64,000 nucleotides of DNA from Deltaproteobacteria bacterium (GCA_016196825.1 JACPWY010000019.1:22644-86643), one strand, 5' to 3'. Positions 15,377-56,685 are shown, numbered from the stretch's first letter. Notes: a model not told the origin generated them from the sequence alone. Program-made: numbers and translations.

Positions 15377-15435
15377 TCAGATTAGCCTTGTCACCCCATT
15401 TGCCCTGATTTACCCTGCAGCCGCAGAGGTTTCCC

Positions 15436-28185: not shown

Positions 28186-28200
28186 GACAAAGCTAATGAA

Positions 28201-30165: not shown

Positions 30166-30250
30166 CCAACGCATTAACGCGCTAGACTGCCTAAAACACT
30201 TCAGAATTTCGCCTGTTTTGCCGATAATAGAGAAGTCCTCCACCCAAACC

Positions 30251-34425: not shown

Positions 34426-34459
34426 GATGCATTCTAGAATACTGGGGAATAACCGAAAC

Positions 34460-34897: not shown

Positions 34898-34950
34898 TTC
34901 GTTATTCTACCTGGTTGACGAGAGATCGGGAGTCTTGAGAGCTTCTGCAG

Positions 34951-36063
34951 ATGGCAGTGGCTTTGGTGACCGGCTCCTCCGGGCTTGTGGGGAGCGAGAC
35001 CGTAAAATTCTTGGTTTCTCAGGGGCTGGAGGTTCATGGGCTCGACAACGACATGCGTTCCTATTTTTTTGGAGGCGAAGCCTCGACGCAATGGAACGCT
35101 GAGTGGCTGACGCATCATCTGAAACCCTTTCATCACCACTCGCTCGATATTCGCAATGAGGCGGAGGTCAACGCGCTCTTTGGGCGATTTGGTGGCGCCA
35201 TCGATCTCATTGTGCATGCCGCTGCCCAGCCGAGCCATGACTGGGCGGCGCGCGAGCCGCTCACCGATTTTTCTGTCAACGCAGTGGGGACCTTGGTTTT
35301 GCTGGAGGCCGCCCGCCGCCATTGCCCAGCCGCCACGTTTATTTTTATCTCAACGAATAAGGTCTATGGTGACCGTCCCAATTCTTTGCCGATTCTCGAG
35401 GGGGAATCTCGGTATGAAGTGGATCCCAAACATCCTTTCGCGCAATCCGGCATCGATGAGACGATGCCAATCGATCAGTCGAAGCACAGTCTCTTCGGGG
35501 TGAGCAAGATGGCGGCCGATCTCCTGGTGCAGGAATATGGCCGGTATTTTGGAATGAAGACCGGCGTTTTTCGTGGGGGCTGTCTGGCGGGGCCGGCCCA
35601 TTCTGGCGTCGAGCTCCATGGCTTTTTGCCTTACCTTGTTCGATGCGCAGTAACCGGGATCCCCTATCGCATTTTCGGATATCGAGGGAAGCAGGTTCGC
35701 GACAATATCCATTCCGCTGATCTGGTGAGCGCGTTCTGGCATTTTTATCGGCAGCCGGGTTGCGCAGCCGTCTACAATATCGGTGGCTCGCGCCACAGCC
35801 ACTGTTCGATCCTGGAAGTGATTCAGCTGATTCAGGAGATCGCGGGGCGCGAAATTTCTTACACGATCGAGGATGGGGCGCGGACTGGTGATCACATTTG
35901 GTGGATCAGCGATGTGCGTAAGTTTCAGCATCACTACCCGGGTTGGTCCTACCGTTATGATTTGCGGGGCATCCTCACCGAAATGGTTGAGGCCGCGCGG
36001 GAAAGATATCTCACTCCCCAACACTTCCGACAGAGTTTGGAAACTCCCCCTCTCAACGCATGA
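34951..36063 (+). CDS. NAD-dependent epimerase/dehydratase family protein
   Basis: [21 protein letters not shown] is a Rossmann motif. Extended SDR, 370 aa. Confidence 0.75.
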
Positions 36064-39033: not shown

Positions 39034-39141
39034 TAAAACCCTCCATAGGCGAGGGTGGGGTCAAAGACCTCTCGCGGGATGAGCGCAATGAGCCGGAGGC
39101 TGAGCAGGGTGAGCATCAGGAGCGTTCCCCAGAGGGCGAGC

Positions 39142-40374
39142 TCAGAGAGTCGAGCTTGGTGCTGTTCCATAGATCTCCGCCAGAGTGGGGGTGACAGCTC
39201 GGGTGAAGAGTCTAGCCCCGTTGATGTTGAAATGATTGACGTCGTAATAGAGGCCCCGAACCTCGTCTTCCGAAAGACTGGAGAAAAGATCGGCCGGCAC
39301 AACGCCTGCCACAAAGAGATTGGGAGCGGGAAAGCGCCTCCTCCAGTCTTGGCGCAACACGATTGTGTGATCCGCGCGATCGAGAAACCGAGGCATGTCC
39401 AAGAGCACGACCTTTGTCCCGTGGGTGAGCGCGAGGTCCACCGCCTTGGCGAAAAAATAGGCGTCGTAAGGGGGAAGCGGTCGGTTGAGCGAGGAGAAAT
39501 TGTTTTGTGTGGCGGGGGAAAGAATAGTCCCTGTCGCACCGGTCGAAATATTTTTTTCTTGGAAGGACGGGTCTTCAGGGAAAGTTCTTGCGCTAAGAAG
39601 AGCGCCCGTTGAGGAGATGGTGGGATCGGATGGGTGAGAGTGTCTAGAACCTATCTCATAAATAGTTTCTACTCGGCTGGTCAAAAAGCCCAGGCTCTTC
39701 GTCCTCCGCGCTCGGCTGCTCGACGTGCCCAGAGGGCACGCCTCCGCGGCCTCGCTTGTGCGTCCTTGATCCAGGGCTTTTTGACTCAGCCTCGCTACGA
39801 AACTATTTATGAGATAGGTTCTATTTCTCAGAAGGCCTAAGACATGCCGTGGAGCCCCTAGATAGGAGTAGGCCCAGAGTCTGAATTTCGAGGGAAGATC
39901 GAGGCCGTTGAGCTCCCCGATGTGTTCTCCCGCGATCCACCAGTAGAGCGAGTAGTAGTGGGGTTCCTTTCGGCCCGCATCGCCCTCGGGTGGATCGATG
40001 ACGACCGTGTGCACTCGGCGTCGTTGGAGGAGCTCTTTCAAAAGAAGATAGATCAAATCTTCCCCTCGCCAGTTTGCGCCAAGATTCAAGGTGACCAATT
40101 TTTTTCCAGGCACCAGGGTCTCGGCCAAGAGATCGGTGTTCACTGCGTTCCAGATGTAAGACGATCCCAAAACAAGGAGATCGATGTCGCCGGTTTCTTC
40201 GAATATTGAATGAGCCATGAACTGGTAGTGGCCGCCGTGGCTCGGTGCGGAATGAAACTTTTGCTCCGGTCGATAGCCCGGCAGGCTCGGAAGAGCCCAC
40301 GGCAGAACTAACAGGAATGCGAGCAGAGCGCAGAACAGCCAGCCCTGCATGCGAGTGGAAAAGGCTGGCTCCAT
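39142..40374 (-). CDS. DltD/AlgJ-like (SGNH-type) extracytoplasmic protein carrying an in-frame MITE-like insertion
   Basis: N-terminal signal/TM (WLFCALLAFLLVLPWALP). C-terminal DAYFFAKAVDLALTHGTKVVLLDMP…LYYDVNHFNINGARLF resembles DltD/AlgJ acyltransferase-partner proteins. Residues about 178-245 are encoded by repeat copy B (39645-39823) with no stop. Confidence 0.45.
   Translation of the reverse strand: MEPAFSTRMQGWLFCALLAFLLVLPWALPSLPGYRPEQKFHSAPSHGGHYQFMAHSIFEETGDIDLLVLGSSYIWNAVNTDLLAETLVPGKKLVTLNLGANWRGEDLIYLLLKELLQRRRVHTVVIDPPEGDAGRKEPHYYSLYWWIAGEHIGELNGLDLPSKFRLWAYSYLGAPRHVLGLLRNRTYLINSFVARLSQKALDQGRTSEAAEACPLGTSSSRARRTKSLGFLTSRVETIYEIGSRHSHPSDPTISSTGALLSARTFPEDPSFQEKNISTGATGTILSPATQNNFSSLNRPLPPYDAYFFAKAVDLALTHGTKVVLLDMPRFLDRADHTIVLRQDWRRRFPAPNLFVAGVVPADLFSSLSEDEVRGLYYDVNHFNINGARLFTRAVTPTLAEIYGTAPSSTL
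39645..39823. repeat. MITE-like palindromic repeat, copy B (full)
   Basis: Perfect 24-bp terminal inverted repeats (agaacctatctcataaatagtttc / gaaactatttatgagataggttct). Inner arms are tactcggctggtcaaaaagcccagg / ccagggctttttgactcagcctcg. Conserved core cttcgtcctccgcgctcggctgctcgacgtgcccagagggcacgcctccgcggcctcgcttgtgcgtcct. Confidence 0.7.
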
Positions 40375-40454
40375 GGAGTGAAGTGTACCCTACTGAGGAG
40401 CTCATGGTTAAGGACACCGCAATGTACTGGCTTGTGATCGAAGCCACCGTCACT

Positions 40455-40534
40455 TCAGTCGGCGCAGTTTGAATACTTTTTGGTATACCGATTTGTATTA
40501 AAGAATAGATTTTGGTATACCGAAAAGTATTCAA
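40455..40534 (+). promoter_or_regulatory. AT-rich putative promoter/operator with duplicated palindromic site TTGGTATACCGA
   Basis: gaatactttttGGTATACCGAtttgtattaaagaatagattttGGTATACCGAaaagtattc carries two copies of GGTATACC (self-complementary), flanked by inverted gaatactttt / aaaagtattc. It lies immediately upstream of the AAA_14 gene. Confidence 0.4.
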
Positions 40535-41677
40535 GTGGGGATTCCTTTGAAACGCTATCTGACAACTTGGTTGAAAACGGCACTGAAGGAAAAGATGGTT
40601 TTTGTGGGTGGGCCGCGCCAGGTCGGAAAGACGACTTTAGCATTTCAACTCCTGGGGAACGCGGATCCTGAGCAATCGGCCTATTTCAATTGGGATATTC
40701 ACGGGACAAAGACGCGGATTCTCAACCATGAATTGCCGGTGGATCAGAAACTCTTAGTGTTTGATGAGATTCACAAGTACCGACAATGGCGGAATTTTCT
40801 GAAAGGGCTTTTCGATCAATACAAGTCAAAAAAGGAGATTCTCGTTACCGGGTCTGCGCGACTGGATGTTTTTCGAAGGGGGGGCGACGCTCTCACTGGT
40901 CGGTACCACTATTATCGATTTCATCCCCTGTCGCTCTGTGAGATCAGTCAGCAGCCAAAATCGTCCGATCTTGATCATTTGCTTAAGTTTGGGGGATTTC
41001 CAGAGCCATTTCTCAAGGGAGAAGAGCGCGCTTGGAAGGTGTGGCAGAATGAACGCGTTACTAGAGTCGTTCAAGAGGACCTGATTTCCTTGGAGAGGGT
41101 GAACGAGCTCAGTCAACTCAGTCTCCTTGCGGAAATATTGCCTATCAGAGTCGGAAGTCTCCTCTCACTCAACAACCTTCGAACTGAGCTCAAGGTCTCT
41201 TACGAGGCTGTCGCAAGGTGGATAGAGATCTTCGATAATCTCTATTACTCCTTTCGCATTTCCCCCTTTGGGTTTGCCCCCCTGCGGACGGCCAAGAAGG
41301 AAAAGAAGCTTTACCTCTGGGACTGGTCTTCTGTTCCCAATGAGTCGGCAAGAGTGGAAAATTTTGTGGCCAGCCATCTGTTGAAATATTGTCATGCGAG
41401 ATATGATCACTTTGGAGAACGGTTGGAGCTACTCTTCTTACGCTCACCGATTGGCAAAGAGATCGATTTCCTCGTGTGCGATCGAAAAAAGCCGGTCTTC
41501 GCCGTGGAATGTAAGTCAGGGGATCGGGAGGTGAGCTCGTCGATTAAATACTTTGCCCCACGAATGCCCATCCCGCGCTTTTTTCAGGTCCATCTCGGGA
41601 AAAAGCATGTCGAGGTGAAGGATTATCGCACTGAGATTATCCCCATGACCCAGTTCGGGAAATGGCTGGGTGTCTAG
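40535..41677 (+). CDS. AAA_14/DUF4143 family ATP-binding protein
   Basis: Walker A GGPRQVGKTTLAFQLL and Walker B LLVFDEIHKYRQWRNFLKGLFD. 380 aa. Its stop abuts the ACP gene's GTG start. Confidence 0.65.
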   Translation: MGIPLKRYLTTWLKTALKEKMVFVGGPRQVGKTTLAFQLLGNADPEQSAYFNWDIHGTKTRILNHELPVDQKLLVFDEIHKYRQWRNFLKGLFDQYKSKKEILVTGSARLDVFRRGGDALTGRYHYYRFHPLSLCEISQQPKSSDLDHLLKFGGFPEPFLKGEERAWKVWQNERVTRVVQEDLISLERVNELSQLSLLAEILPIRVGSLLSLNNLRTELKVSYEAVARWIEIFDNLYYSFRISPFGFAPLRTAKKEKKLYLWDWSSVPNESARVENFVASHLLKYCHARYDHFGERLELLFLRSPIGKEIDFLVCDRKKPVFAVECKSGDREVSSSIKYFAPRMPIPRFFQVHLGKKHVEVKDYRTEIIPMTQFGKWLGV

Positions 41678-41929
41678 GTGGATGCAGGCACCGTGCTGTT
41701 GAGGCTCCAGACCATTTTTGACGACCTGCTTCTTCAGCCGGTCACGCTCACGCCAGCGCTCAGCGCCGATGAGGTCGAGGAATGGGATTCCCTGTTACAG
41801 GTGTCGATCGTGGCCGCGGCCGAAGAGAGATTTGGCATTCAGTTTCGCACGGGTGAAGTGGAGGCGACGCGGAATGTGGGTGATCTGGTCGCCTTGATCC
41901 AACGGCATCTTTCCCGTCAGGCAGGTTGA
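41678..41929 (+). CDS. acyl/peptidyl carrier protein (phosphopantetheine-binding)
   Basis: GTG start. …ADEVEEWDSLLQVSIVAAAEERFGIQF…VGDLVALIQ has the DSL Ser motif and four-helix ACP pattern. Confidence 0.65.
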   Translation: MDAGTVLLRLQTIFDDLLLQPVTLTPALSADEVEEWDSLLQVSIVAAAEERFGIQFRTGEVEATRNVGDLVALIQRHLSRQAG

Positions 41930-43383
41930 AGCGTGCCGGTCGGAATGGGGAGTTCTTCCTGGTGTTCGGACCTGAGTCCGAGCTCCGTGATCACGGCCGA
42001 TTCTTGGTAGGATTCGTAGTCGGTGTTGATGTCCCAGAGGTTGTGCTTCGCCCCTTGGTTTATCTTTTCAGCGGCGAGGAGCCCCATGAGGAGGCTGTGA
42101 TCTTGGTTATTGTATTTGAAGGAGCCATACCGACCGATGGGTGTGAGATTGTTGATCCCATTGATCCACTTTGCGATGTGGCTGACCAAGGTCTTGTATC
42201 CTCGTCGATAAACTGGGTAGCAGCGATTGAGCCGCTCGACATGGCCGCGCAGGATATTGGCCTTGCCGATGAGCCCCGTCTTGCGGAGCTCCGCCGAGGC
42301 CGTTGCGGCGAGTGAGTCATGCGAGTCGCTCCAGAGGGTGTCGTCTCTATTGCACCAATATTCGAGGGCCAAGATCGAATTCTCGGATCCTCGGTGGAGC
42401 TCGGGGACCCAGTTGCGAAAATTGGTGATACGACCGGTCTGGAGTTCGGGAGAGTGGACGTAGATCCAGTTGTCGGGGAAGAGGTTTTTCGAGTCGATCT
42501 CGAGATAAACTAGGATCGTGTTGCGAAATGAGAGGCCATCGACGGCGGCGCGGACGGAGTCGGGAACACCGGAAAGGGATTTCACCAAAAGTGTCAGGGG
42601 CATCGTGGAGACGACGTGATCATAAAGACGTTTTTCTCCGGTCGATAGCTCGACACCGGTGACATGGCCGTGGTCAGACATCAGTCTTTGAATCGGTGAG
42701 TTGAGGTAGACCTTGTTGCCCTTTCGCTCTATGAAGTCGGCCATCCGAGTGTAGAGTGCGCCGGAGCCCTCCTTGGGATAAGCGAAGCGATCGACGAGCG
42801 TTTTATGTTGGGTGGTTCCGATCTGAAAAGCGTTTTTGATCGCCTCAAGCAACGAAAGCTTCTTGATTCGTTGAGCCGCGAAATCGGCATCGAGATCTTC
42901 ACAGGAGATGCCCCAGAGCTTTTCGCTGTAGGTCTTGAAAAAAACCTCGAAGAGTCGCCTCCCAAAGCGCGAGGTGACCCATTGTTCAAAGCTCAAATCG
43001 TGCGACGCGGCCCTGGTCCGGAATTTTTCCGTGGCGTAGCTCGCGAGACAGCGCGTCGATTCCCATCCGCCGAGATTCGAAAGCGCGTCGAAAGGCTTGA
43101 GCGGGTAGTGGAAGAATCGCTTTCGGTAATAGATTCGCGTGAGGCGGTCGATCATCGCGTAGTCGCGGCCGATCACCTCGAGCCAGAGGCGGTTGATCCG
43201 GGCGTCGCAGGAGAAGAATCGGTGGGGGCCGAGATCCACGCGTTGTCCCCAGAGGTCGAACGAGCGTCCGAGGCCGCCGACAACGGGGGCGGCCTCAAAC
43301 ACATCGACCGAGTGGCCGGCCTTTGAGAGCTCGTAGGCAGCCGTGATACCAGCCGCGCCGGCTCCGATGACCGCAGTTCTCAT
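41917..43383 (-). CDS. FAD/NAD(P)-binding oxidoreductase (amine-oxidase / UDP-galactopyranose-mutase-like fold)
   Basis: MRTAVIGAGAAGITAAYELSKAGHSVDVFEAAPVVGG is a dinucleotide-binding GxGxxG motif plus the oxidase-family GG motif. Confidence 0.6.
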   Translation of the reverse strand: MRTAVIGAGAAGITAAYELSKAGHSVDVFEAAPVVGGLGRSFDLWGQRVDLGPHRFFSCDARINRLWLEVIGRDYAMIDRLTRIYYRKRFFHYPLKPFDALSNLGGWESTRCLASYATEKFRTRAASHDLSFEQWVTSRFGRRLFEVFFKTYSEKLWGISCEDLDADFAAQRIKKLSLLEAIKNAFQIGTTQHKTLVDRFAYPKEGSGALYTRMADFIERKGNKVYLNSPIQRLMSDHGHVTGVELSTGEKRLYDHVVSTMPLTLLVKSLSGVPDSVRAAVDGLSFRNTILVYLEIDSKNLFPDNWIYVHSPELQTGRITNFRNWVPELHRGSENSILALEYWCNRDDTLWSDSHDSLAATASAELRKTGLIGKANILRGHVERLNRCYPVYRRGYKTLVSHIAKWINGINNLTPIGRYGSFKYNNQDHSLLMGLLAAEKINQGAKHNLWDINTDYESYQESAVITELGLRSEHQEELPIPTGTLQPA

Positions 43384-43467
43384 TCAGACCCCGCAGAGCG
43401 AAACAAAATTTGTTGCGAAAAAATGGCCAGGATTCGCGGGGGACCCCGCAGCTCCAGAAAATGATTT

Positions 43468-43532
43468 TAGAACGTATTTCATAAATAGTTTCTACTCGGC
43501 TGGTCAAAAAGCCCAGGCTCTTCGTCCTCGCG
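43468..43532. repeat. MITE-like repeat, copy C (left half only, solo arm)
   Basis: tagaacgtatttcataaatagtttctactcggctggtcaaaaagcccaggctcttcgtcctcgcg matches the left 65 bp of copy B. No right arm is present. Confidence 0.6.
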
Positions 43533-43574
43533 CCTGGCCTGGGATTTCGGTGGGTTTCATGCTAAGACCAACCG

Positions 43575-44657
43575 ATGACGCAAGCACCAGAAACCCCTTC
43601 GGACGGCCGAGTTCTTCTGATCACGGGCGCGGCGGGTTTCATCGGCGCTAACGCGTGCCGCTATTTTTCCCAACGGGGCTGGCAGGTTGTGGCTCTTGAG
43701 TCGCCCAAAACGATCGGGTGGCGACTCAAAGGAATAGATGGCATTACGCGTCTCAAGGTGGACATCACGGATGCTGTGGCGGTGCGGGAAACACTGCTCC
43801 GTTGCCGGCCGCAATTTGTGATGAATTGCGCGGCCTACGGAAGCTACCCAAGCGATCAACGCCAGGATCTGATCTACCGCGTGAACTTTGATTCGGTTCG
43901 CGCGATGCTCGAGGTCTTGAAGGATTCCCCCGGGCTTCGAGGTTTTATTCAGGCCGGGTCATCCTCCGAATATGGATTCAACTGTGCGGCCCCCCGCGAG
44001 AATATGGCGTGTGAACCGGATAGCCACTTCTCCGTTTCGAAGTTGGGGGCGACTCAACTCGTTCAGTTTTATGGTCGTCGATTCAACGTGCCCGCGTGGT
44101 CATTGCGCTTGTCTTCGGTCTACGGACCACTCGAAGAATTCTCGCGCCTGATTCCTCAGATCTGTTGGAAGGCCTTGAAGGGGACACTGCCCGATCTTGC
44201 TTCCCCTGAGATCTCGCGGGACTTTGTTTACATCGACGATGTGCTTGAGGCCTTCGAGGCTGTGATGATGAAGGCGGACTCGTTGGCCTGCGGAGAGGTC
44301 TACAATATTGGCAGCGGGATCTGCACGACATTGGGGCATCTCGCCGAGACGGCCCGAGAAATATTTGGAATCACGGACCTTCCGCGCTTTGGACAGTTTG
44401 CCGACCGCGGGTGGGATCACCCCTCTTGGTATGCCAACCCGGAGAAGGGGGTGGCGTTCTTGGGGTGGAATGTGCGCGTACCGCTCGTCGACGGGTTGAG
44501 AAAAACCTACGCATGGATGGAGCAGAATCCGGAAACGGTTCTCGCGTCTGAGAAGTACAGCATTATTCAAAGAGGGAAAGGCAATGTCGGCTTTGGCAGA
44601 GACGCTGGCGCGCGACGCTCGGGAAATCCGGAAGCGCCTCCTCAAGCCTCACCTTGA
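43575..44657 (+). CDS. NAD-dependent epimerase/dehydratase family protein
   Basis: VLLITGAAGFIGANACRYF is a Rossmann motif. 360 aa extended SDR. Confidence 0.75.
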   Translation: MTQAPETPSDGRVLLITGAAGFIGANACRYFSQRGWQVVALESPKTIGWRLKGIDGITRLKVDITDAVAVRETLLRCRPQFVMNCAAYGSYPSDQRQDLIYRVNFDSVRAMLEVLKDSPGLRGFIQAGSSSEYGFNCAAPRENMACEPDSHFSVSKLGATQLVQFYGRRFNVPAWSLRLSSVYGPLEEFSRLIPQICWKALKGTLPDLASPEISRDFVYIDDVLEAFEAVMMKADSLACGEVYNIGSGICTTLGHLAETAREIFGITDLPRFGQFADRGWDHPSWYANPEKGVAFLGWNVRVPLVDGLRKTYAWMEQNPETVLASEKYSIIQRGKGNVGFGRDAGARRSGNPEAPPQASP

Positions 44658-45003: not shown

Positions 45004-47748
45004 TTACGGCCAGTAACGCATGATCGCGAAGTCGTAGCTGGCCGCCTGCGCATTACCCACCGCCACAATCTTGCCGTCGGACTGCAGCGCCAACCCAAAG
45101 ATGCTGTTGTTGTTGGCGGCGCCGCCGAGGCCTGTGTAATCCGTCTCGACCTGGCCGGTGCTGTTGAAGCTCGCGTCGAGGGCGCCGGCTGAGGTGAGCC
45201 GCATCATCGCGAAGTCTTTCTCCGTGTTTGTCGAGTAGCCGCCGATGATGATGTTGCCCGAGCTATCGATCACAAGCGCCGTGCCATCCGCCGCACCCGC
45301 GCCAATCGCGGTGGTGTAGGTGCCGGCAGTGCCGAAGGTGGCATCGACGGCACCCACAGAGGTCAAGCGCGTCACCGTCATCTGGTTCGAACCCGTCGCG
45401 CTCACGCCGCCGAGGACGATGTTACTGCTCGAGTCGATGGCCATTGCCTTCACGATGTCGGTGCCGGCAGTGACATCAACCGTGGTGTAGCCCGAGGTGC
45501 CGAAGTCCGTGTCGATCGCACCGACCGAGCTCACCTGGGCCACCGCGAACTGATAGGTGCCGGAGAGAGCCGTGCCGGCCATCACGATTTTGCCGCTGGA
45601 AAGAATCGAGAGGGCATAGCAATCATTCTGTGAATTTGCGATCGGGCTGAACACCGCTCTACCCGTGGTGTTGAAGGTCGTGTCGGCCGTTCCATCCGTG
45701 CCGTAGCGAGCGATGGCGAAACGCTTCTTGCCCGCGAGAGAGATGCTGTAACCGACGGCAACCGCTTTGCCATTGCTGTCGAGCGCGAGGCCGCGGAGCA
45801 CATCGTCTTGGCCGTTGAACTGCGTTATGGCGATGCCGCTCGTGCCGTAGGCGGTGTCGATCGCACCGGCCGAAGTCAACCGTACCACCGAGAAGTTGAG
45901 GTCACCCGAGGTGGCCGCCGAACCGCCGACTAGAACTTTGCCATCGGCCTGGATGACTACCGCGTAGGCAACATCGTTTCCACCCGCCGAAACATCGATC
46001 GAAACCTTACCGCCCGTACCGAATGAGGCGTCGAGCGCGCCGGCGGTGCTGTAGCGGGCGACCGCGAAATCCGTGTCGGAGCCGTTGTAGCTCGAACCGG
46101 CGACCACAATCTTGCCATCGCTCTGCAGGGCCACAGCGTATCCGTAGGCATCCGCAGAACCTATCGACGAGGCCACTTGGCCCGTGGTGTTGAAGGTCGT
46201 ATCGAGCGAGCCGGGGTTGCCGATGCCTGTGCCGGTCATCGCGCGGGTCGCGCTCGAGGTCGAGGCATCCGGAAGAGTGTAGTTGACCGTTAGCGTATCG
46301 CTCGCGGCACCGAGGGCGGTCGGGCTGAAGCGGACCACGATTGTGCAGGTGGCGAGGCTTCCGATTGAATTGCCACAGGTGCCGCCGGTGCCGGGGTACG
46401 CACCGCCCTTATATGTGTACGGCGCCGAGAGGGCCGCCCCACTCACGACCGTGGCCGAGCCGTGCTGCGAATTGGTCACCGTGAAGGACTTATCCGTATT
46501 TGTGGTGTTGATGTACTTCGAACCGAAGCTGTAGGTCGCGCCATCTGAAATCGAAAGTGAGGCATAGCCGAGGCCCGTGCCAGCCACATCGCGGGAGGCG
46601 GTCTGCGTGGCGACGCCATCATTATAGGTGAGGTTGATGGTGCTGCTCGTGGCGCCCGTAGCCGTTGGGGAGTATGTCACGATGAGCGTGCAGGTCGCGC
46701 TGCCGGCAAGCGAGGCGCCACAGGTGCCGCCAGTGCCGGGATATGAACCACCCTTGTAACCGTACGGAGCGGCGAGGGCCGGAGTTGTGTTCGAGAACGA
46801 AGTTGCCGTTGCGCTACCCGCGTTTGTGACCGTGAACGTCTTGTCGGCCGTGAGTGTCTCGTAGGTGTCGGGGTAGGTGTAGGTGGCGCCGTCCGAAACC
46901 GAGAGAGAGGCCGGGGTTTGGCCCGTGCCCTGCATCGCGCGCGTGGCCGATTGTGTGCTTGTGCCATCATTGTAAGTGAGGCGGAGCGTGTCCGAGCTCA
47001 GCACCGCGGCCGACGGGGTGTAGCGCACAACCACCGTGCAGGTGCCACTGGCCGCGAGGGTCGCGCCGCAGGTGCCCCCGGTGCCGGGGTAGGCGCCGCC
47101 CTTGAAGGTGAACGGGGCCGCCATCGCGGGGGTGCCAGCCGCCATCGCCGTCGCGCCCACCGTGCCCGTGTTAGTCACGGTGAAACTCTTGTCCGAGGTG
47201 TTGCCGATCACAATCGTTCCATAGTCGTAGGTGGCGCCATTCGAAATCGAGAGGACCGCGCCGTCGGAGGCCGCACCAGTCAGCTGCGTGATGTCCGAGG
47301 TGAGGACGGTCTTGCTGTCGACCCCGTTATAGTAGGTCAAGAAGAGCTCGCCTGTCGCGGCGCCACTTGAGGTCGGGCTGAAAGCAAGAACCACGGTGCA
47401 GGTCTCACCGACCTGAATCACAAGGCCGCAAGTTCCGCCGACGCCGGGGTAGTAACCGCCGAGAAAGGTGAACGGGGCAGTGAGCGACTTGGGTTGCGGG
47501 GCACTCGCGAGGAGGCCACCGTTGTTGGAAAGGGTCAGGTTGGCCGTGACCGTTCCGCCCACGCTTGCCGTGCCGAAATCGATCGGTCCGTTTGTCGCCA
47601 CGAGATTGGCCGGACCAGAGATGAGCTTATCGGAATCTTTTTTCTGCTTGCGGCAAGAAACTGCGGACGCAGCTAAGATAAGCGCGAACCCAACGTATTG
47701 GGCGAAGCGCAGAGAGGCTTTAATTTGTGAGCAGCTACCAACGTACAT
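45004..47748 (-). CDS. large secreted/lipoprotein with N-terminal Gly/Thr-rich Ig-like repeats and C-terminal delta-60-type repeat region
   Basis: Signal/lipobox-like N-terminus (ALILAASAVSC). At least five repeats share FTVTN-G…PY.YKGG.YPGTGGTCG…C…V.(R/T)(Y/F).P(T/S). The C-terminal half has repeated TDFAVARY…G.LD..FG..G motifs, which are delta-60/beta-propeller-like. Confidence 0.6.
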   Translation of the reverse strand: MYVGSCSQIKASLRFAQYVGFALILAASAVSCRKQKKDSDKLISGPANLVATNGPIDFGTASVGGTVTANLTLSNNGGLLASAPQPKSLTAPFTFLGGYYPGVGGTCGLVIQVGETCTVVLAFSPTSSGAATGELFLTYYNGVDSKTVLTSDITQLTGAASDGAVLSISNGATYDYGTIVIGNTSDKSFTVTNTGTVGATAMAAGTPAMAAPFTFKGGAYPGTGGTCGATLAASGTCTVVVRYTPSAAVLSSDTLRLTYNDGTSTQSATRAMQGTGQTPASLSVSDGATYTYPDTYETLTADKTFTVTNAGSATATSFSNTTPALAAPYGYKGGSYPGTGGTCGASLAGSATCTLIVTYSPTATGATSSTINLTYNDGVATQTASRDVAGTGLGYASLSISDGATYSFGSKYINTTNTDKSFTVTNSQHGSATVVSGAALSAPYTYKGGAYPGTGGTCGNSIGSLATCTIVVRFSPTALGAASDTLTVNYTLPDASTSSATRAMTGTGIGNPGSLDTTFNTTGQVASSIGSADAYGYAVALQSDGKIVVAGSSYNGSDTDFAVARYSTAGALDASFGTGGKVSIDVSAGGNDVAYAVVIQADGKVLVGGSAATSGDLNFSVVRLTSAGAIDTAYGTSGIAITQFNGQDDVLRGLALDSNGKAVAVGYSISLAGKKRFAIARYGTDGTADTTFNTTGRAVFSPIANSQNDCYALSILSSGKIVMAGTALSGTYQFAVAQVSSVGAIDTDFGTSGYTTVDVTAGTDIVKAMAIDSSSNIVLGGVSATGSNQMTVTRLTSVGAVDATFGTAGTYTTAIGAGAADGTALVIDSSGNIIIGGYSTNTEKDFAMMRLTSAGALDASFNSTGQVETDYTGLGGAANNNSIFGLALQSDGKIVAVGNAQAASYDFAIMRYWP

Positions 47749-49682: not shown

Positions 49683-50621
49683 TTGGGTAATTATTTGAGA
49701 CGAAAATTTTCCATTTTGCTCCTGTTGGTCTTGAGCGCGCCGACGTCGTTGTACGCCCGCTCTCCCGAAGAGTCGGAGTTTTATGCGGCCTCTCTTCTGG
49801 GTGATGACATCGCCCGTTGGGTGATGAAGCTCAACCGCGGACCGATGGCGATCGGAATCTTTTCCGTCTACGCGAATCCACCCTTTGAGGCGGACTACTC
49901 CCAGATTGTAGAGACCGAGGTCGTGAAAAGCTTGGCGAAAGCCGGCGTGGAAAAGGTGTCGACCTGCCCTGAGTGCAGCACGCCCCATGTGACTGTGTCT
50001 GAGGAGCGGCTCATCGTGAAAAAGGGGGCGCCGGATCTCGAGACACTCAAGCGAATCGGGATGAAGCAGCCTATAGACGCCTTCATGACGATCGATCTCT
50101 ATCGCACGAAGCTCGCCGTCATGGCGCAGGTGGTGCTCTACCAGAACCCGACAGCCGTGGTCATCGCCGCCGAACGGTTCCGCGTGCCAGCGATGAGCCT
50201 CACCGATGGAGCGGTTCAGGTCTTGCTGACTTTTGGTGGTGGCCAGGCCATCGGTGGCACGAGTACAACGATGCCGCTGGGTTTCGGTCTCTCGCTCTTA
50301 GAGGAGGTCGGCTTTGGAAAAGCCGGTCTCAGCGCCGGCGCGGTGATGGGAACGGGATCGATCATCTATCTCAATCCCACACTCGCCTGGTTTGGCCGAT
50401 ACGGCGCCTCTTCGCTTTCCTATTCGATCAATTTGGGGCTCGGTTTTGGTTTTGCAGGCGCTGACAAGGGGATTGTCGTCAAAGGGGCCTATGAGATCTA
50501 TTTGGGCTCACTGGCGGTAGCCGGTTTCGACGGGGAGTATTTCATACCGTCGGGCACGGCCACTGCTGGGCAGATGAACGGATATTTCGGAGTGCACGTA
50601 GGGTTTGCGTTCGGTCGTTAG
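49683..50621 (+). CDS. secreted hypothetical protein; Gly-rich C-terminal half suggests a beta-barrel or outer-membrane protein
   Basis: Signal peptide KFSILLLLVLSAPTSLYA. Gly/Ala-rich alternating hydrophobic C-terminal half. First gene of a tightly packed five-gene operon. Confidence 0.45.
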   Translation: MGNYLRRKFSILLLLVLSAPTSLYARSPEESEFYAASLLGDDIARWVMKLNRGPMAIGIFSVYANPPFEADYSQIVETEVVKSLAKAGVEKVSTCPECSTPHVTVSEERLIVKKGAPDLETLKRIGMKQPIDAFMTIDLYRTKLAVMAQVVLYQNPTAVVIAAERFRVPAMSLTDGAVQVLLTFGGGQAIGGTSTTMPLGFGLSLLEEVGFGKAGLSAGAVMGTGSIIYLNPTLAWFGRYGASSLSYSINLGLGFGFAGADKGIVVKGAYEIYLGSLAVAGFDGEYFIPSGTATAGQMNGYFGVHVGFAFGR

Positions 50622-50627
50622 ATACGA

Positions 50628-51293
50628 ATGGAGATTGAAGCAAGGATGCTCAGTCGATCAAAAATTCTGATTCTGCTCACGATCTGGGGGAGATTGGTCT
50701 GGGCTCCACCTGAGTACAAGGTCGAAGAGCAGGGCAATAATCTGATTCTTATCACGCCCGACGGGCGCCGAATCCTTTGGGGCGATCACAATCTTCCGTC
50801 TGAAAGGGCGTACGAATTTGAGATTCCGCTTTCGGAGCTAGCCGAGGATACGATCAAGAAAACCCCCGATCGTGCGCCGACCAGTCTCCCGCCCCAAAAC
50901 TTACCGTCCCCATCCCCGACTCCCTTTTATGACGTGGATTGGGATTGGGAGGAGCCGGACGAAGAGATCGTGATCGCGCCCACTCCGTCACCAACACCGG
51001 TAGTTGTCGCCTCCCCCACGCCCACACCCAGTCCTGTTGTGGAATTCGATGAGAGTGATGGCCTGATTCTCAAGGCCAATCGGCTTTTTCACAAAGGTCG
51101 GTACTACGAAGCGGCGTTGTATGTTGATGAGATCTTGCGCAAGCACCCGACGCACCTACGGGCCTGGCTCATGAAGGGCAGCGCGCTCTACAAGATGGGG
51201 CAAAAGGATATGGCTCAGAAGGCCTGGCAGCAGGCCCAGACTCTCGACACGGAAAAGAAAGTGACCCAAGGAATTCTGGAGCGCTATAAGTGA
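50628..51293 (+). CDS. periplasmic TPR-repeat protein with Pro-rich linker
   Basis: N-terminal signal, PTPSPTP linker, and C-terminal ANRLFHKGRYYEAALYVDEILRKHPTHLRAWLMKGSALYKMGQ (TPR-like). Confidence 0.5.
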   Translation: MEIEARMLSRSKILILLTIWGRLVWAPPEYKVEEQGNNLILITPDGRRILWGDHNLPSERAYEFEIPLSELAEDTIKKTPDRAPTSLPPQNLPSPSPTPFYDVDWDWEEPDEEIVIAPTPSPTPVVVASPTPTPSPVVEFDESDGLILKANRLFHKGRYYEAALYVDEILRKHPTHLRAWLMKGSALYKMGQKDMAQKAWQQAQTLDTEKKVTQGILERYK

Positions 51294-53083
51294 TTCAATT
51301 ATCACTCCTACTAGGAATTCTGGCGTTTGCGGCGCCAGACCCCTACCTTGTCGAGTCGAAGGTGCAGCTCGACCTCGACAACGCGCTTTCCAAGATGATC
51401 CCGCATGAGCTCTATCTGGTTCAGATCCACACGGACGTTGTGACAAAGTCGGAGAGAAAGCTCATCGAAGGTGAGAGTATCCAGGAGCCACAGGTCGTCG
51501 AGGACGACCCGGCTAACGAAGAGCCGATGCCGGGCTATATTCCCGAGCCGGAGCCCTTGTCAGCTAAGAAACATGGTCCACGGGTGAGACAGGTCTTCCG
51601 AGTCGTGGACACGCCGGAACTCCAGATGGTCCATGTCTTGGTGAACTTCGATGACACCGTTGCCCTGGACACCATGAACCGCGCGCGCGCGTTTATTCAG
51701 AGCTATCTCCGAGAGGGATATGCAAACAAGTCGACTTTCGTGTTTGCGCAGGTGCCGATGTTGAAACCACCGAAGCCGTCGGTTGCGCCGACCCCTACGC
51801 CGACACCGGTGGAGTTTGACGATGAGGATATGGAGGAGGATGGATTCGAGTATCCCAAGGCGCCGCTCCCACCGCCTCCGCCAGTGAAACCGGAGCCGAC
51901 TTGGCTCGACAAGGTCTGGGAGGCCAAGTGGTTCTGCCTCGCAGCCTTTGGTGCCCTTCTGTATTTCATCCTGCATTGGCGATCGCTTTCAGTGCGCGCG
52001 ATGAAGAAGAAATTCCCGCAGCCTCTGGCGCCACATCCGCTCGAGAATCTCCTTCGCATCCTGATTCCCGGCCATAATCTGGCGAAGGAGCCCGAGAAGG
52101 GAAAGGCAGGGAGCACTGATGGCGCCGGGGGCACCAAGACGCCAGCTACCGCCGAGGAGCTTGATGAAGAGGCGGCCAAGCACAAGCGCCGCGATAAGAT
52201 GCTCGACAAGTTCTTGATGTTCTCCAAGGCCTTTGCGCCTTACTACCGCACACTTTCGGCCGAGCAGAAGGACGAGCTCTATGGTCTGCTCAAAGGGCCC
52301 ACGATGGATGGACTGATGACCGGTCTCGGGTTTCCGAAACCCAAATCGGAGGTGCCAGAGCCAGGCAATCCAGAAGAGGTTTTTGAAAAACACGAACGGG
52401 ACTTTGCTGAGTACCTGAATGCACGCGATTGGCAAGCGAAGCAGTTTTTCGGATTCCTTTCGGAGCTCTCCGAGGAGCAGCTCGTGAGTCTGGTGAATCA
52501 CGAAACTCCCGTCGCGGTCTGCGCAATGCTTCGGTTCATGAAGCCGCAGCAGTCGGCCTCAATCCTCGAGGCTTTGCCCGCCGGGCGTCGCCTTGAGATT
52601 CTGTCGGCTGTCCCCCAGGTTCAGACGACGCCCTTCACAGAATTGGTCAATATTGAGCGAGAGGTTCGCACGGCCGTTCAGATGATGCCCGCCCATCTCT
52701 TTGGAGCGAAAAAACAAGATGTCGAGTACTGGGGGAATGTGCTTGCCGAGTCGACGAACCAAGATGTCATATTGGGCGACCTCGAAAAGACGAACCCCGA
52801 GATCTACCCCGATTTGAGCAAGTTCAAGTTCAAGTTGGAGGATGTCTCCACCCTACCCGACTCGCTGCTACAGACCATTCTTGCCGAGGCGGACAACGAC
52901 GAGCTCGCGATGGCTTTGTCGACCTGTCCGGATGACGTGTGCGAAGTGATTCTCGATGCCATCTCGCCCCGTCGTCAGGAGATGTTGCGCCAGACCATTC
53001 AAGCTTCAAAGACGGCACCGAAGGAACAGACTAAGGCTGCCCGTGTAAACCTGACCAAGAAATTCAGAGAGGCCATGCAATGA
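51290..53083 (+). CDS. membrane-anchored protein with C-terminal FliG-like (MgtE_N/FliG armadillo) domain
   Basis: Signal peptide, a 200-aa periplasmic domain, a Pro-rich segment and a TM (WFCLAAFGALLYFILHW). The cytoplasmic …ASILEALPAGRRLEILSAVP…LPDSLLQTILAEADNDELAMALSTCPDDVCEVILDAISPRRQEMLRQ resembles FliG middle/C-terminal motifs. It overlaps neighbours by 4 bp. Confidence 0.5.
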   Translation: MIQLSLLLGILAFAAPDPYLVESKVQLDLDNALSKMIPHELYLVQIHTDVVTKSERKLIEGESIQEPQVVEDDPANEEPMPGYIPEPEPLSAKKHGPRVRQVFRVVDTPELQMVHVLVNFDDTVALDTMNRARAFIQSYLREGYANKSTFVFAQVPMLKPPKPSVAPTPTPTPVEFDDEDMEEDGFEYPKAPLPPPPPVKPEPTWLDKVWEAKWFCLAAFGALLYFILHWRSLSVRAMKKKFPQPLAPHPLENLLRILIPGHNLAKEPEKGKAGSTDGAGGTKTPATAEELDEEAAKHKRRDKMLDKFLMFSKAFAPYYRTLSAEQKDELYGLLKGPTMDGLMTGLGFPKPKSEVPEPGNPEEVFEKHERDFAEYLNARDWQAKQFFGFLSELSEEQLVSLVNHETPVAVCAMLRFMKPQQSASILEALPAGRRLEILSAVPQVQTTPFTELVNIEREVRTAVQMMPAHLFGAKKQDVEYWGNVLAESTNQDVILGDLEKTNPEIYPDLSKFKFKLEDVSTLPDSLLQTILAEADNDELAMALSTCPDDVCEVILDAISPRRQEMLRQTIQASKTAPKEQTKAARVNLTKKFREAMQ

Positions 53084-53856
53084 TAGTCAAAATGTTCGGA
53101 TTCGCCATATTGGTGGGCTGTCTTTTTATAGTCTTCGAGTTCGAATCCCAATCGGAAGCCACGGGCATCATGCGAATCTTTCACTGGCCGGCTATGGTGT
53201 TGACCGGAATCGGTCCGACGGCCCTCGTGTTTATGTGTTCGGAGGTGCGGGCCTTTTTTCAAACGATTGGATTTGTCTTTGGTCGCTCCGCCATGAAGGT
53301 TAAAAAGAAACATGATGTCGAATTGATGTTGCTGCAGAAGATCTCAAAGGACTTCTACACGCAAGGCCCGAAAGTGTTTGAAACGGTGCAGGTGAAAGGT
53401 CTTTCGGCGTTTATCGTGAAAACGATCGATCGCCTGTCGATCCGAATGCCTACGCCGGACGTTCGCGAGCTCCTGCAATCGGAATGTGAACGGGTGGAGC
53501 ACAACATGAAGAACTGCGTAAGTGTGCTTGGAATGGGTATCAAGCTCACCCCCTCCGTAGGAATGTTGGGAACCATCATGGGAATGGTGAACCTGCTCGC
53601 CAATATGCAGGATCCCTCGACAATCGGCTCCTCAATGAGCTTAGCCCTTCTCACGACATTCTTTGGACTGTTTTTTTCCATGACCGTTTGGACACCGCTT
53701 CAGGCGAAGGTTGATCGGGTCATGACGGCGGAAATCGATGCCTATGAAAAAACGATTCGTTGGCTTGAGACTTTAGAAAAACGCAAACCGGCGACCTACT
53801 TTGCTGACGCGGTCAATATCAAAGTGATCGATGCAGCTCCAGCCGGAAAGAAATAG
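53080..53856 (+). CDS. MotA/TolQ/ExbB family proton-channel protein
   Basis: Four TM helices with a large cytoplasmic loop between TM2 and TM3. Conserved LGMGIKLTPSVGMLGTIMGMVNLL in TM3 resembles the MotA/ExbB signature. 258 aa. Confidence 0.7.
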   Translation: MIVKMFGFAILVGCLFIVFEFESQSEATGIMRIFHWPAMVLTGIGPTALVFMCSEVRAFFQTIGFVFGRSAMKVKKKHDVELMLLQKISKDFYTQGPKVFETVQVKGLSAFIVKTIDRLSIRMPTPDVRELLQSECERVEHNMKNCVSVLGMGIKLTPSVGMLGTIMGMVNLLANMQDPSTIGSSMSLALLTTFFGLFFSMTVWTPLQAKVDRVMTAEIDAYEKTIRWLETLEKRKPATYFADAVNIKVIDAAPAGKK

Positions 53857-53868
53857 AGGACTACTGAA

Positions 53869-54507
53869 ATGAGCGGCGGCGGTGACGATGAGTTTCTGTG
53901 GCTGATGAGTTTGAGCGATCTAATGATTCTGCTCTTCATCTTTTTCGTCGTACTTTTTAGCTTCACCTATAAGAAGGTGAAAAACGTCGACATGTCTCGG
54001 ATCGCGGAGATCATGCGCACCGGGAAGGCCTCCGAGACCCCGGCTGAAAAGCTACAAAAGAAGATGGAAGAGTTCACAAAGCAGGAGCATCTCGACCAGA
54101 TGATCGAGGTGGTCCGTGAGGAAGACACCGTTCGTCTCGAGATCAAGGACAAGGTTCTCTTTGCTAGCGGCGATTATATTCCCACGGAGGGTGGAGTCAT
54201 TGTTCTGGCAAAATTGTCGAAGGTGCTGGAAACAGTCCCCAAGGAGTTTCAGATAGGAATTGAGGGCCACACCGATGACGTCCCCTTGCGAGGCGCCTCG
54301 ATTCGAGACAACTGGGAGCTCGCGGCTCGTCGTTCTCTCGCTGTCTTTTACGTGATGAACGTGACTCCCGAACTGCTCAAAAGAATTGTTGTCATGGCCT
54401 ACGGCGACCAACGCCCACTCGTCCCCAACCGCGACCCCGCCGGCAATTCCCTCCCGGAAAACCAGGCTAAAAACCGCCGTGTCACCGTCCGCATCTTCCA
54501 ACTCTAA
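53869..54507 (+). CDS. MotB-like protein with OmpA-family peptidoglycan-binding domain
   Basis: N-terminal FLWLMSLSDLMILLFIFFVVLF with a conserved Asp, like the MotB plug/TM. C-terminal IEGHTDDVPL…NWELAARRSLAV…NRRVTVRI is the OmpA/MotB PG-binding motif. Confidence 0.7.
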   Translation: MSGGGDDEFLWLMSLSDLMILLFIFFVVLFSFTYKKVKNVDMSRIAEIMRTGKASETPAEKLQKKMEEFTKQEHLDQMIEVVREEDTVRLEIKDKVLFASGDYIPTEGGVIVLAKLSKVLETVPKEFQIGIEGHTDDVPLRGASIRDNWELAARRSLAVFYVMNVTPELLKRIVVMAYGDQRPLVPNRDPAGNSLPENQAKNRRVTVRIFQL

Positions 54508-54519: not shown

Positions 54520-56685
54520 TCAGGTACTCTTTTCAGAGGGCCGTGGGGGAAAGGCGGGGGTGCAGGATTCATCCGCCAGTGTGAGGTTGGGATTATAGTA
54601 TGGGTCGTTCGCGAGGGCGTCGCCCCAACGCTTCATCATCCAGTCGTTCTCCCGGCGGAACCGATCGATTCGCTCGGGGGCCTCATCTGATCCACGGGTT
54701 GCGGATTCCAGGTGATAGAGCTCGGCGTAAGGGGTCCATAGGTTGCGATAGCCAGCCTTCCTCAGTCGAATCCCGAGGTCAACGTCATTGAAAGCCACAG
54801 GAAGGTTCACCTCATCAAAACCCGCCACCTCTTGGAAAATAGTCCGTCGGATCACAAGGCACGCTCCGGTCACCGCAGTGTAGGCCTGCATGACATTCGC
54901 TCGCCCGATGAAGCGCCCCGTGTTCGCGGGCTGATGTTTTTGGGGGTGGCCGGCGACGCCACCGATACCCAGGACAATCCCCGCGTGCTGGATCGTGTTG
55001 TCGGCGTAATAGAGCTTGGCCCCCACGGCTCCAACTCCCTTTTGATTCGCGACGCGGACCATCTCATCCAGCCAGTTGGGTGCGATGACCCGAAGGTCAT
55101 TATTGAGAAAGGCCAGAATGTCCCCCCGAGCTTCGCGCGCGGCGAAATTATTCATCGCGGAAAAGTTAAAGGGGTGGTTGAAAGGGAGAACCCGCACTTT
55201 GGGATGGGACGAAATTGCCTTTAGATAGTCGATGGTTTCCGGTTCCGAGCTTTGATTGTCGACAATCAGAATCTCGAGGGGGTCGTAGTCTGTGTTGTGG
55301 AGCAGATCGTGCACAATGGCGGTGAGAAGGTCTTTTTTGTCGCGTGTGCAGATCATGATCGAAACCAGTGGTTGGGAATTGGGTTTCGGGTACACCACCC
55401 GGTGGTAGCTCTCATACCCTTCAGTCACCCGGGCCTCAACGCCTTGCGAGAGTAGGTACTCTCGAATGGATCGCCGGGCGTTTTCATGGGCATACCCCTT
55501 CGCCCCAGGTCCGAGCGCCGTGGAGCCCGCGATCGCCCGCCAGTGGTAGAGAATTTTCGGGATGTGACCGATCCGATCGGGAGATGTGTGCGCGATCACG
55601 CGCAGAAAGAGATCATAGTCCTGGCTCCCCTCATAACCTCGCCGAAATCCACTGACTGCATTCACTAGACTCCGCCGAATGCAGGCCAGGTGAGTGATGA
55701 GGTTGTAGGAGAGAAACAGGTCAGGGTTCCATTCGGTCTTGAAGTGTGGCTCAAACCGGTGGCCAAAGGAATCGATCTTATCCTCGTCGCTGTAAATGAG
55801 GTCGAGATCCGGCTGGCGATCGAGGCGTGCGGCCACCTCAAGCAGAGCATTCTCTGACAGCTCATCATCGTGATCGAGGAAGACGACAAAGTCCCCAGTG
55901 GCCAGCTCCAAGGCGGAGTTTGAAGCCTCTGAAATGTGGCCATTGATCGGGCGTCGGGTGATCTTGATCCGCGGGTGCTCTTCAAACTTTTGGAGAGTGG
56001 CTTTCACCGACGATAGGGAGGAGTTGTCATCGGCGATACAAAGTTCCCAATATGGGTAGAGTTGGCGAGTCACAGATTCAATCGCCCGAGTTAGGTAGGG
56101 CTCAGGCGTGTTGTAGACCGGAAGGATGACTGAAAACTTGGGGTGAGACGAGAGCCTTTCGAACTGTTTCCTCAGGAGGTCCCGCTTTGAGTCATCGATT
56201 GTGTCGTAGTTCTCAACCCAGATCGCGTACTCATTCTTCACGCACTCGCCCGATTGAAAAACCAGATCCTGAATGAGAGCGCGCACCAGCCGCCGTTGGC
56301 CCTGGGTTTCGATAAGCTGGCGGACAAAGGTCACTAGTCTTTTTGGATGCACGAGAAACCGAGCCAGGATCGGCATCAGGCTCAAAGCGAGGCTACCGGC
56401 AGTGGCCAAGGATCGGAAAGAGATGGCCTGCGGAGTTGCACCCTCAACCGCAAGGGTCTCCACCCACCCGGGAAATTTGATAAACGCTTCGCCCCTTTGT
56501 CGAGGTGAAGAAAGAGTCACTCGATAGGGCTCGCGGTTTTTCCCGAAACGTGCCGTCACACAAAGCGTGAAGGGCTGTCGCGAAGCCGAGTTTTCAAAAT
56601 CGACCCGCACCCAGCCGAGGGGAAAATCGACGACGGGCAGCTCCCAGCGGCCTGTGGTTCCGTTATTGCGAAAGTGAAGCGCCAT
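54520..56685 (-). CDS. large glycosyltransferase with two GT2 (GT-A) domains
   Basis: First domain FSVILPVYNTPEPYLTRAIESV…CIADDNSS. Second domain VSIMICTRDKKDLL…ILIVDNQS. A 170-aa N-terminal domain is unknown. Confidence 0.7.
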   Translation of the reverse strand: MALHFRNNGTTGRWELPVVDFPLGWVRVDFENSASRQPFTLCVTARFGKNREPYRVTLSSPRQRGEAFIKFPGWVETLAVEGATPQAISFRSLATAGSLALSLMPILARFLVHPKRLVTFVRQLIETQGQRRLVRALIQDLVFQSGECVKNEYAIWVENYDTIDDSKRDLLRKQFERLSSHPKFSVILPVYNTPEPYLTRAIESVTRQLYPYWELCIADDNSSLSSVKATLQKFEEHPRIKITRRPINGHISEASNSALELATGDFVVFLDHDDELSENALLEVAARLDRQPDLDLIYSDEDKIDSFGHRFEPHFKTEWNPDLFLSYNLITHLACIRRSLVNAVSGFRRGYEGSQDYDLFLRVIAHTSPDRIGHIPKILYHWRAIAGSTALGPGAKGYAHENARRSIREYLLSQGVEARVTEGYESYHRVVYPKPNSQPLVSIMICTRDKKDLLTAIVHDLLHNTDYDPLEILIVDNQSSEPETIDYLKAISSHPKVRVLPFNHPFNFSAMNNFAAREARGDILAFLNNDLRVIAPNWLDEMVRVANQKGVGAVGAKLYYADNTIQHAGIVLGIGGVAGHPQKHQPANTGRFIGRANVMQAYTAVTGACLVIRRTIFQEVAGFDEVNLPVAFNDVDLGIRLRKAGYRNLWTPYAELYHLESATRGSDEAPERIDRFRRENDWMMKRWGDALANDPYYNPNLTLADESCTPAFPPRPSEKST

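Follow-up and report, generated by a model that had tools for sequence, protein, structure and literature searches.

We analysed a five-gene operon, g1 to g5, that spans positions 49683 to 54507 of a 64,000-nucleotide (nt) stretch of DNA from a Deltaproteobacteria bacterium (GCA_016196825.1 JACPWY010000019.1:22644-86643). This whole stretch is called the window below and all positions are counted from its first letter. The operon encodes a MotA/MotB-type stator pair together with a membrane-anchored protein that has FliG domains, and it looks like an undescribed flagellum-independent motor in uncultured Bdellovibrio-like bacteria. Its five open reading frames (ORFs) are as follows.

g1, 49683..50621, + strand: 312 aa, outer-membrane protein with a signal peptide, a periplasmic alpha/beta domain and a C-terminal beta-barrel
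g2, 50628..51293, + strand: 221 aa, secreted TPR protein
g3, 51290..53083, + strand: 597 aa, bitopic single-chain rotor candidate
g4, 53080..53856, + strand: 258 aa, MotA/PomA-type stator A subunit
g5, 53869..54507, + strand: 212 aa, MotB-type stator B subunit

All five ORFs are present on the + strand where a preliminary description, made from the sequence alone, had placed them, and all of them are intact and translationally coupled. The tight coupling reported in that description holds, with its two 4-nt overlaps unchanged and its gaps of 7 and 13 nt corrected to 6 and 12 nt: g1 and g2 are 6 nt apart, g2/g3 and g3/g4 overlap by 4 nt each, and 12 nt lie between g4 and g5. The start of g1 is ambiguous, as the longest ORF begins with the TTG at 49683 and gives 312 aa while the NCBI protein has 308 aa and begins with the TTG at 49695. 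The products had been described as a secreted outer-membrane-like protein, a TPR protein, a membrane protein with a FliG-like C-terminus, a MotA-type channel and a MotB, and our profile searches and models agree with these assignments, with one detail of g5 corrected below. The description had further stated that there are no flagellar structural genes nearby, and a Pfam scan over the whole 64-kb window indeed found none among its 45 large ORFs (>=180 aa). The adjacent fliF-fliG-fliH region that it had feared is absent from the window and from within +/-8-10 kb of the operon in the annotated related loci.

FliG-type domains of g3

According to its AlphaFold2 (AF2) model, the g3 protein consists of a signal peptide, a periplasmic domain, a Pro-rich linker, a transmembrane (TM) helix, a disordered linker and an all-helical cytoplasmic region (residues 288-596), in this order. 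The mean pLDDT (predicted local distance difference test) of the model is 72.7, with 85-91 in the folded cores, and its pTM (predicted TM score) is 0.31. Nearly all of the ~80 full-length (510-720 aa) family representatives listed have the N-terminal hydrophobic signal and the central TM segment. The main parts of g3 are the following.

Periplasmic domain, 51338..51769, + strand: residues 17-160, alpha-beta-beta-alpha-beta, with two long strands (42-65 and 99-120)
TM core, 51932..51979, + strand: residues 215-230, FCLAAFGALLYFILHW; the model helix covers 205-238
FliG middle and C-terminal domains, 52436..53074, + strand: residues ~383-595, torque-helix region included

In the cytoplasmic part of g3, after its single TM helix, we found genuine FliG middle and C-terminal domains. 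Its Pfam matches are FliG_C (E 1.2e-16, residues 497-595), FliG_M (E 3.2e-6) and MgtE_N (E 2.4e-9), all above the gathering scores, and the FliG region matches the T. maritima FliG_MC with E 1e-20 in a PDB profile search and reaches a probability of 99.9 with hhalign.

FliG proper is a soluble protein of ~330 aa whose FliG_N domain binds the FliF C-terminus, and g3 does not fit this definition. No FliG_N is detectable in g3 by sequence, and its score of 59.3 bits against the FliG equivalog TIGR00207 is below the cut-off of 226.7. We examined the FliG motifs over 66 representatives of the g3 family. The FliM-binding EHPQR motif is degenerate, with its His replaced by N/S/T (there is no His among the eight commonest residues at this position, which cover 62 of the 66) and its Gln by L/I/V/M, and with the Glu and the Pro kept in 41/66 and 46/66, respectively. 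The K264 position is occupied by A/S/L and the R297 position by P/S, i.e. both residues are lost, and 64 of the 66 representatives retain the first Phe of the MFXF hinge. Judged from its sequence, g3 does not qualify as FliG proper, as it lacks a sequence-detectable FliG_N, a regular EHPQR motif and the acidic pair discussed below, and it scores under the equivalog cut-off.

A periplasmic domain that is FliF-like in the model

Two independent structure-comparison methods assign the periplasmic domain of the g3 model to the fold of the FliF ring-building motif 3 (RBM3)/beta-collar, and in both of them FliF entries are the best matches apart from FliG. The most conserved periplasmic motif of g3 is the near-invariant P-G-F (P81, G82, F83), which forms the loop at the tip of the long hairpin and is a plausible, putative partner-binding site. 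The hallmark of FliF, two TM helices around RBM1-RBM2-RBM3, is not found in g3, where a single RBM-like domain and a single TM helix follow the signal peptide. Going by the model, g3 looks like a natural single-chain FliF(RBM3)-TM-FliG protein. The preliminary description had pictured the FliG-like partner as fixed, which it probably is not, because its periplasmic domain has a ring-forming RBM3/beta-collar fold in the model.

The stator subunits g4 and g5

The g4/g5 pair is a MotA/MotB unit of the flagellar type (PomAB/MotPS-like). The Pfam family MotA_ExbB matches g4 with E 1.4e-20 (73.7 bits), the best NCBIfam models are PomA and MotP (PomA E 6.6e-21 vs TolQ 7e-4 and ExbB 3e-3), and the PDB matches are all flagellar MotA or PomA. 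Over its length g4 can be aligned with PomA and MotA, and it has the features of a flagellar MotA, namely four TM segments, a large cytoplasmic loop and the channel prolines P173/P222, both kept in 12/12 g4 orthologues. A recent MotAB phylogeny treated the flagellar-type clade as flagellum-associated.

The single TM segment of g5 contains the channel Asp, D17 in SLSDLM, which is equivalent to MotB D32, and residues 98-193 form an OmpA-like peptidoglycan-binding domain. Its Pfam matches are OmpA (E 1.7e-9, 38.4 bits) and MotB_plug (E 2.6e-7). The preliminary description had given g5 a plug, a channel Asp and an OmpA domain; the Asp and the OmpA domain stand, and the MotB_plug match extends over profile positions 14-40 of 58, which correspond to the TM segment alone. 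The g5 orthologues keep the Asp and the GHTDD and NRRV motifs. The equivalog cut-offs are reached by neither subunit, with g4 at 74.8 bits vs 341 for PomA and g5 at 101 bits vs 283 for MotD, and the matches of g5 to MotD, MotB and MotS in NCBIfam are all below their cut-offs. By these scores g4 and g5 would represent new subfamilies rather than orthologues of named proteins.

The type of the motor bears on two other identities. An Agl-Glt-like gliding or surface-secretion motor was among the candidates of the preliminary description; we rejected an Agl-Glt or Gld gliding motor because g4, being PomA-type, belongs to a different motor branch, g4/g5 being flagellar-type as opposed to TolQR-type, and there are no linked Glt or secretion components. 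A Zorya-like anti-phage defence system built on a MotAB-type motor could be proposed from the matches of g5 to the PADLOC ZorB models (E 8e-22). These reflect generic MotB/OmpA similarity, however, and g4 has neither a ZorA match nor the long ZorA tail, g1-g3 are also without PADLOC matches, no ZorC/D-like genes are present, and the flanks vary between loci and are not defence-island-like. With the PADLOC matches limited to g5 we rejected the Zorya identity, and we give this reading practically no credence.

The rotor-stator interface

For the stator side of the interface we aligned 12 MotA orthologues with PomA and E. coli MotA, and FliG positions are given in E. coli numbering. In the reference sequences used, PomA from ~residue 91 onwards agrees with the HMMER alignment, and the R88/R90 numbering agrees with the published positions. 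The canonical contacts are those of MotA R90 with FliG D288/D289 and of MotA E98 with FliG R281 (PMC12505986).

The preliminary description had raised the conservation of the charged MotA loop residues as a check, and the outcome is divided. The E98 position is E/D in the 8 close orthologues (g4 E101), and the R90 position is Tyr in 12/12 orthologues (g4 Y93), including that of the distant locus L014 described below. On the rotor side the D288 position is S/A/Q/N and the D289 position is Gln in 53/66 representatives (g3 has Q568/T569 at D288/D289). The R281 position is R/K in 37/66, and the next residue is Arg in 65/66 (g3 R561/R562). From the charged torque-helix set of K264, R281, D288, D289 and R297, only the Arg is kept. 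One contact pair is retained and the other is replaced on both partners, and such a coordinated change would be the pattern expected of a dedicated MotA-FliG pairing.

These residues also bear on the possibility that the operon supplies an accessory or alternative part of the hosts' true flagellum, with g3 in or beside the MS/C ring, g4/g5 as one of several stator sets, comparable to the three MotAB pairs of Bdellovibrio bacteriovorus, and g1/g2 as an outer disk like FlgT/FlgP/FlgO. With a degenerate EHPQR motif and no sequence-detectable FliG_N, g3 could not stand where FliG normally does. The Tyr that is invariant at MotA R90 and the lost acidic pair of FliG argue for a private stator-rotor pairing, and no flagellar gene is linked to the operon in the window or in the annotated related loci. 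We regard this accessory role as quite improbable.

The outer-envelope partners g1 and g2

The preliminary reading of g1 as a secreted, outer-membrane-like protein is borne out by a signal peptide and a modelled 8-stranded outer-membrane barrel (residues 178-311). Between them lies a periplasmic alpha/beta domain (residues ~30-170) with the invariant Cys95/Cys98, which is LpoB/PelC-like in the model. This fold class is common to ring-forming outer-membrane-associated proteins such as PelC, CsgG and the basal-body protein of the Vibrio LPHT ring.

In g2 the signal peptide is followed by a conserved domain of small size, then by a variable, Pro-rich linker of low complexity, and at the C-terminus by about two TPR repeats (residues ~146-212; Pfam TPR_2, E 3.7e-8). 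The residues A150, A162, P174, M182, G184, S185, A196 and W200 are invariant over 10 aligned orthologues, and the g2 gene lies between g1 and g3 in every complete locus.

Conservation of the operon

The five genes travel together. The order g1-g2-g3-g4-g5 is kept in the window and in the related loci L003, L004, L005, L009, L010 and L011, and the same order is found in a divergent form in L008, L013 and L015; the operon is cut off by the contig ends in L001 and L012. Overall, the synteny check suggested by the preliminary description gives the five-gene order in at least 9 metagenomic loci that are independent of each other. This goes far beyond what chance would produce, as the arrangement recurs with flanking genes that are unrelated between the loci. 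No flagellar genes were found in the annotated flanks of L003, L004, L005, L008, L013 and L015. The distant g3 relatives P0122 (E 1e-28), P0164 and P0150 also keep the five-gene layout, with g1 and g2 recognised by our local hidden Markov models (HMMs). The nearest species-level genome found by a contig scan with the g3 protein is that of an uncultured Pseudobdellovibrionaceae (a metagenome-assembled genome). The g3 profile retrieved 93 proteins at E<1e-30 from 1.84 billion cluster representatives, and a further homology search with a diverse alignment gave no new named proteins.

This conservation bears on whether the operon is a decaying and now functionless relic of a flagellar locus. The loss of the canonical FliG motifs EHPQR, K264, D288/D289 and R297 would be compatible with decay. 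On the other side, the ORFs are intact and translationally coupled, the order and the sequences are conserved over the 93 cluster representatives, and new invariant residues have arisen, i.e. P-G-F, R562 and MotA Y93. We find a relic very hard to believe.

A different architecture was found at L014:6392-10115, on a 528-kb contig with a GC content of 38%, where the order is MotA, MotB and then a 704-aa g3-like protein, whose periplasmic domain is of the g3 type (local HMM E 3.5e-11) and whose C-terminus is FliG-like. Neither g1 nor g2 lies next to this trio. With GC contents of 38-44%, L014, L013 and L008 look as if they came from other lineages. This suggests that the rotor-stator trio may be the core of the system, because MotA, MotB and the g3-like protein occur there without the two outer partners.

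Two further observations concern single loci. In L010 (5527-6298) the MotA homologue is covered by two overlapping tblastn pieces and its ORF has only 211 aa, owing to a frameshift or an assembly error. In L013 a gene with a Leptospira-type Lsa36 domain lies upstream of the operon, and together with the literature (PMC13066512) this suggests that the family may have a cultured member, for which L. interrogans WP_000879539.1 is a candidate.

Comparison with known systems

The nearest functional analogue is the core of the flagellar motor, which consists of the FliF MS ring, FliG and MotAB/PomAB, and above all its engineered FliF-FliG fusions (e.g. PDB 8z4d). Common to both are the homology of g3 to FliG_M/FliG_C, the FliF RBM3/collar fold of its modelled periplasmic domain, the PomA/MotP-like stator with the MotB Asp and the OmpA-like domain, and a retained pair of the E98-R281 type. 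Unlike the flagellar core, the operon uses one polypeptide with a cleavable signal peptide and a single TM helix in place of FliF and FliG, and this polypeptide is without RBM1/RBM2 and sequence-detectable FliG_N. The EHPQR motif is degenerate, with no linked FliM/FliN found, and the R90/D288-D289 salt bridge has given way to Tyr and polar residues. No type III export gate, rod, hook, filament, L/P rings or FliM/FliN switch are linked to the operon in the scanned ORFs of the window and the annotated flanks, and the linked genes are instead those of an outer-membrane barrel and a TPR protein.

The Tol-Pal system (TolQRA, TolB, Pal and CpoB/YbgF) is similar in its envelope-spanning operon and in its set of parts: the ion motor comes from the same superfamily, and it is accompanied by a bitopic inner-membrane protein, by a TPR protein in the periplasm and by an outer-membrane partner linked to peptidoglycan. 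It differs in that the present motor is MotAB-type, the partner is FliF/FliG-like and not TolA, and peptidoglycan binding resides on the B subunit. No TolA, TonB, TolB or Pal was found in the operon with Pfam and NCBIfam.

This likeness leads to another reading, a non-rotary force transducer of the Tol-Pal/Ton kind. Here g3 would form no ring and act as a TonB/TolA-like arm, the rotation of MotA would pull the FliG-like domain and the strain would pass to g2/g1, in order to tether the outer membrane, to maintain the integrity of the envelope or to signal across it to an ECF (extracytoplasmic function) sigma factor. The Tol-Pal-like layout, from the motor and its bitopic partner in the inner membrane through the periplasmic TPR protein to the partner in the outer membrane, speaks for it, as do a weak YbgF/CpoB-like TPR match of g2 and the hypothetical status of the g3 ring. 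In two distant loci (L008:4312-5518 and L015:2985-4360) an ECF-type sigma-70 gene and a gene for a 255-285-aa single-TM protein, whose layout resembles that of an anti-sigma factor, lie directly upstream of the g1 homologue. The window and the closer loci have no such sigma/anti-sigma pair, however, the motor is flagellar-type and not TolQR/ExbBD-type (the PomA and TolQ E-values given above), and the partner is a torque-helix domain joined to a fold otherwise seen in ring-building proteins, with no extended TonB/TolA-like arm. We consider the force transducer unlikely, though it is the main rival of the rotor-stator machine proposed below. The signal-transducing stator of the preliminary description survives within it as a minority view, carried by the two distant loci.

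The remaining systems are further away. GldLM of type IX secretion and gliding and AglRQS-Glt also use a motor of the same superfamily outside the flagellum, and in both a bitopic periplasm-spanning protein conveys motion in the direction of outer-membrane components. Unlike the present operon, GldL and AglR/Q/S belong to the Exb/Tol-like branch, with their own B-subunit-like periplasmic arm and no FliG-like rotor, and the annotated flanks of the operon showed no Gld, Spr or Glt genes. Zorya ZorAB is similar as a MotAB-related ion motor outside motility and differs by its ZorA tail and ZorC/D, which have no counterpart here. The ring-building-motif proteins SctJ/PrgK/EscJ and SpoIIIAG are less similar to g3 than FliF RBM3 is; none of them has a FliG domain, and they belong to secretion or feeding channels.

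Proposed mechanism

The central claim of the preliminary description, a membrane-tethered FliG-like domain beside MotA/MotB in a non-flagellar context, is supported by all the checks run. We put the probability at roughly 55% that the five genes specify a self-contained rotor-stator machine which is made of flagellar motor parts and works independently of the flagellum, this independence being suggested by gene linkage and motif loss. In such a machine the ion flow through a peptidoglycan-anchored MotA5B2 unit would turn the MotA pentamer, which would push the torque helix of the g3 FliG_C domain through a remodelled interface where the Glu-Arg pair is kept and the Arg-Asp pair is changed to Tyr and Gln or another polar residue. 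The RBM3-like domains of g3 would assemble into a ring resembling the MS ring, which in the case of FliF has ~33-34 subunits, and the FliG ring would be part of the same chains, as a natural equivalent of the engineered FliF-FliG fusions. This ring would rotate, or be forced, in the inner membrane. The P-G-F hairpin tip could hand the movement to g2 and the outer-membrane protein g1, and the ion-motive force might in this way be coupled to some outer-envelope process, e.g. surface movement, export or envelope remodelling.

Several points weigh against this machine. The ring formation and rotation of g3 are suggested only by the fold similarity of a model with a pTM of 0.31, in which the hairpin tip has a low pLDDT of ~53-55. 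The sequence support for FliF is marginal: with the periplasmic domains of 38 members searched against Pfam for PF01514/PF08345, PF08345 (FliF_C) is matched by 2/38 with a best E of 0.064, and it is the sole family matched by more than one member. A PDB profile search with this domain gave no FliF at E<=10 and only spurious weak matches to a lipoprotein and ABC substrate-binding proteins (E 0.005). The acid equivalent to E98 is not kept in the 4 most distant loci, and the register of the torque helix is shifted by one residue between HMMER/MAFFT and hhalign, the conclusion on the interface being the same in either register. The Bdellovibrionota-like hosts may well be flagellated.

A more specific form of the rotor-stator machine is a minimal stand-alone ion-driven rotary motor, with a single-chain MS-ring/FliG rotor and MotAB and without a type III secretion core or an axial filament. 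It could have arisen from a flagellar motor by secondary simplification and now drive an outer-envelope process, or it could be a surviving relative of the rotor-stator module recruited at the origin of the flagellum. We hold this form to be possible, at somewhat less than even odds. Within it, the L014 architecture suggests that the rotor-stator core could be ancestral and the outer-membrane parts lineage-specific additions. We see a substantial chance that such a stand-alone rotary motor is relevant to the origin of the flagellum.

No membrane-anchored FliF/FliG-like protein accompanied by MotAB was found described in the literature searched. To our knowledge FliG and FliF have so far been regarded as flagellum-specific, and the non-flagellar MotAB relatives that we know of (Ton, Tol, Gld, Agl and Zorya) all belong to the Exb/Tol-like or Zor branches and are without a FliG rotor. 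If the proposed machine is real, it would show that the part of the flagellum that generates torque is able to stand by itself as a module. With three core proteins it would also be a much simpler system in which to study stator-rotor mechanics and assembly, and a test case for models of flagellar origin in which either the motor or the secretion system came first. The replaced charge pair would serve as a natural experiment on the engagement of MotA with FliG.

Genomic surroundings

A promoter and terminator scan of the operon gave counts no higher than those of shuffled controls. The gene downstream of the operon (54520-56685) is on the opposite strand and convergent. About 2 kb upstream, at 45004-47748 on the - strand, lies the gene of a 914-aa secreted protein with repeated HYDIN/VesB-like immunoglobulin domains and DUF5122 beta-propeller repeats, which was not found beside the operon in the related loci.

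The window also contains two large clusters for the biosynthesis of surface polysaccharide and nonulosonic acid (155-16323 and 30119-44657), which include a NeuB-cytidylyltransferase fusion, three DegT aminotransferases, epimerases, GT2/GT4 glycosyltransferases, MBOAT and an FkbH-like gene. We rejected a functional tie of the operon to these adjacent genes, as L001, the closest relative, is the only locus that has this flank too. Sugar-nucleotide biosynthesis genes and Lon are found in the neighbourhood as well.

Between the two clusters, at 16886-29865 on the - strand, there is a run of PAS-rich sensor kinases of the HWE/HisKA_2 type, with largest ORFs of 1133 and 845 aa, together with response-regulator hybrids and one 554-aa PAS-rich ORF without a kinase-domain match. 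Genes of AAA_14-family ATPases are located at 22493-23683 (- strand) and at 40535-41677 (+ strand), the latter also having DUF4143, and both lie within or adjoin lower-GC stretches of the window (~0.50-0.51).

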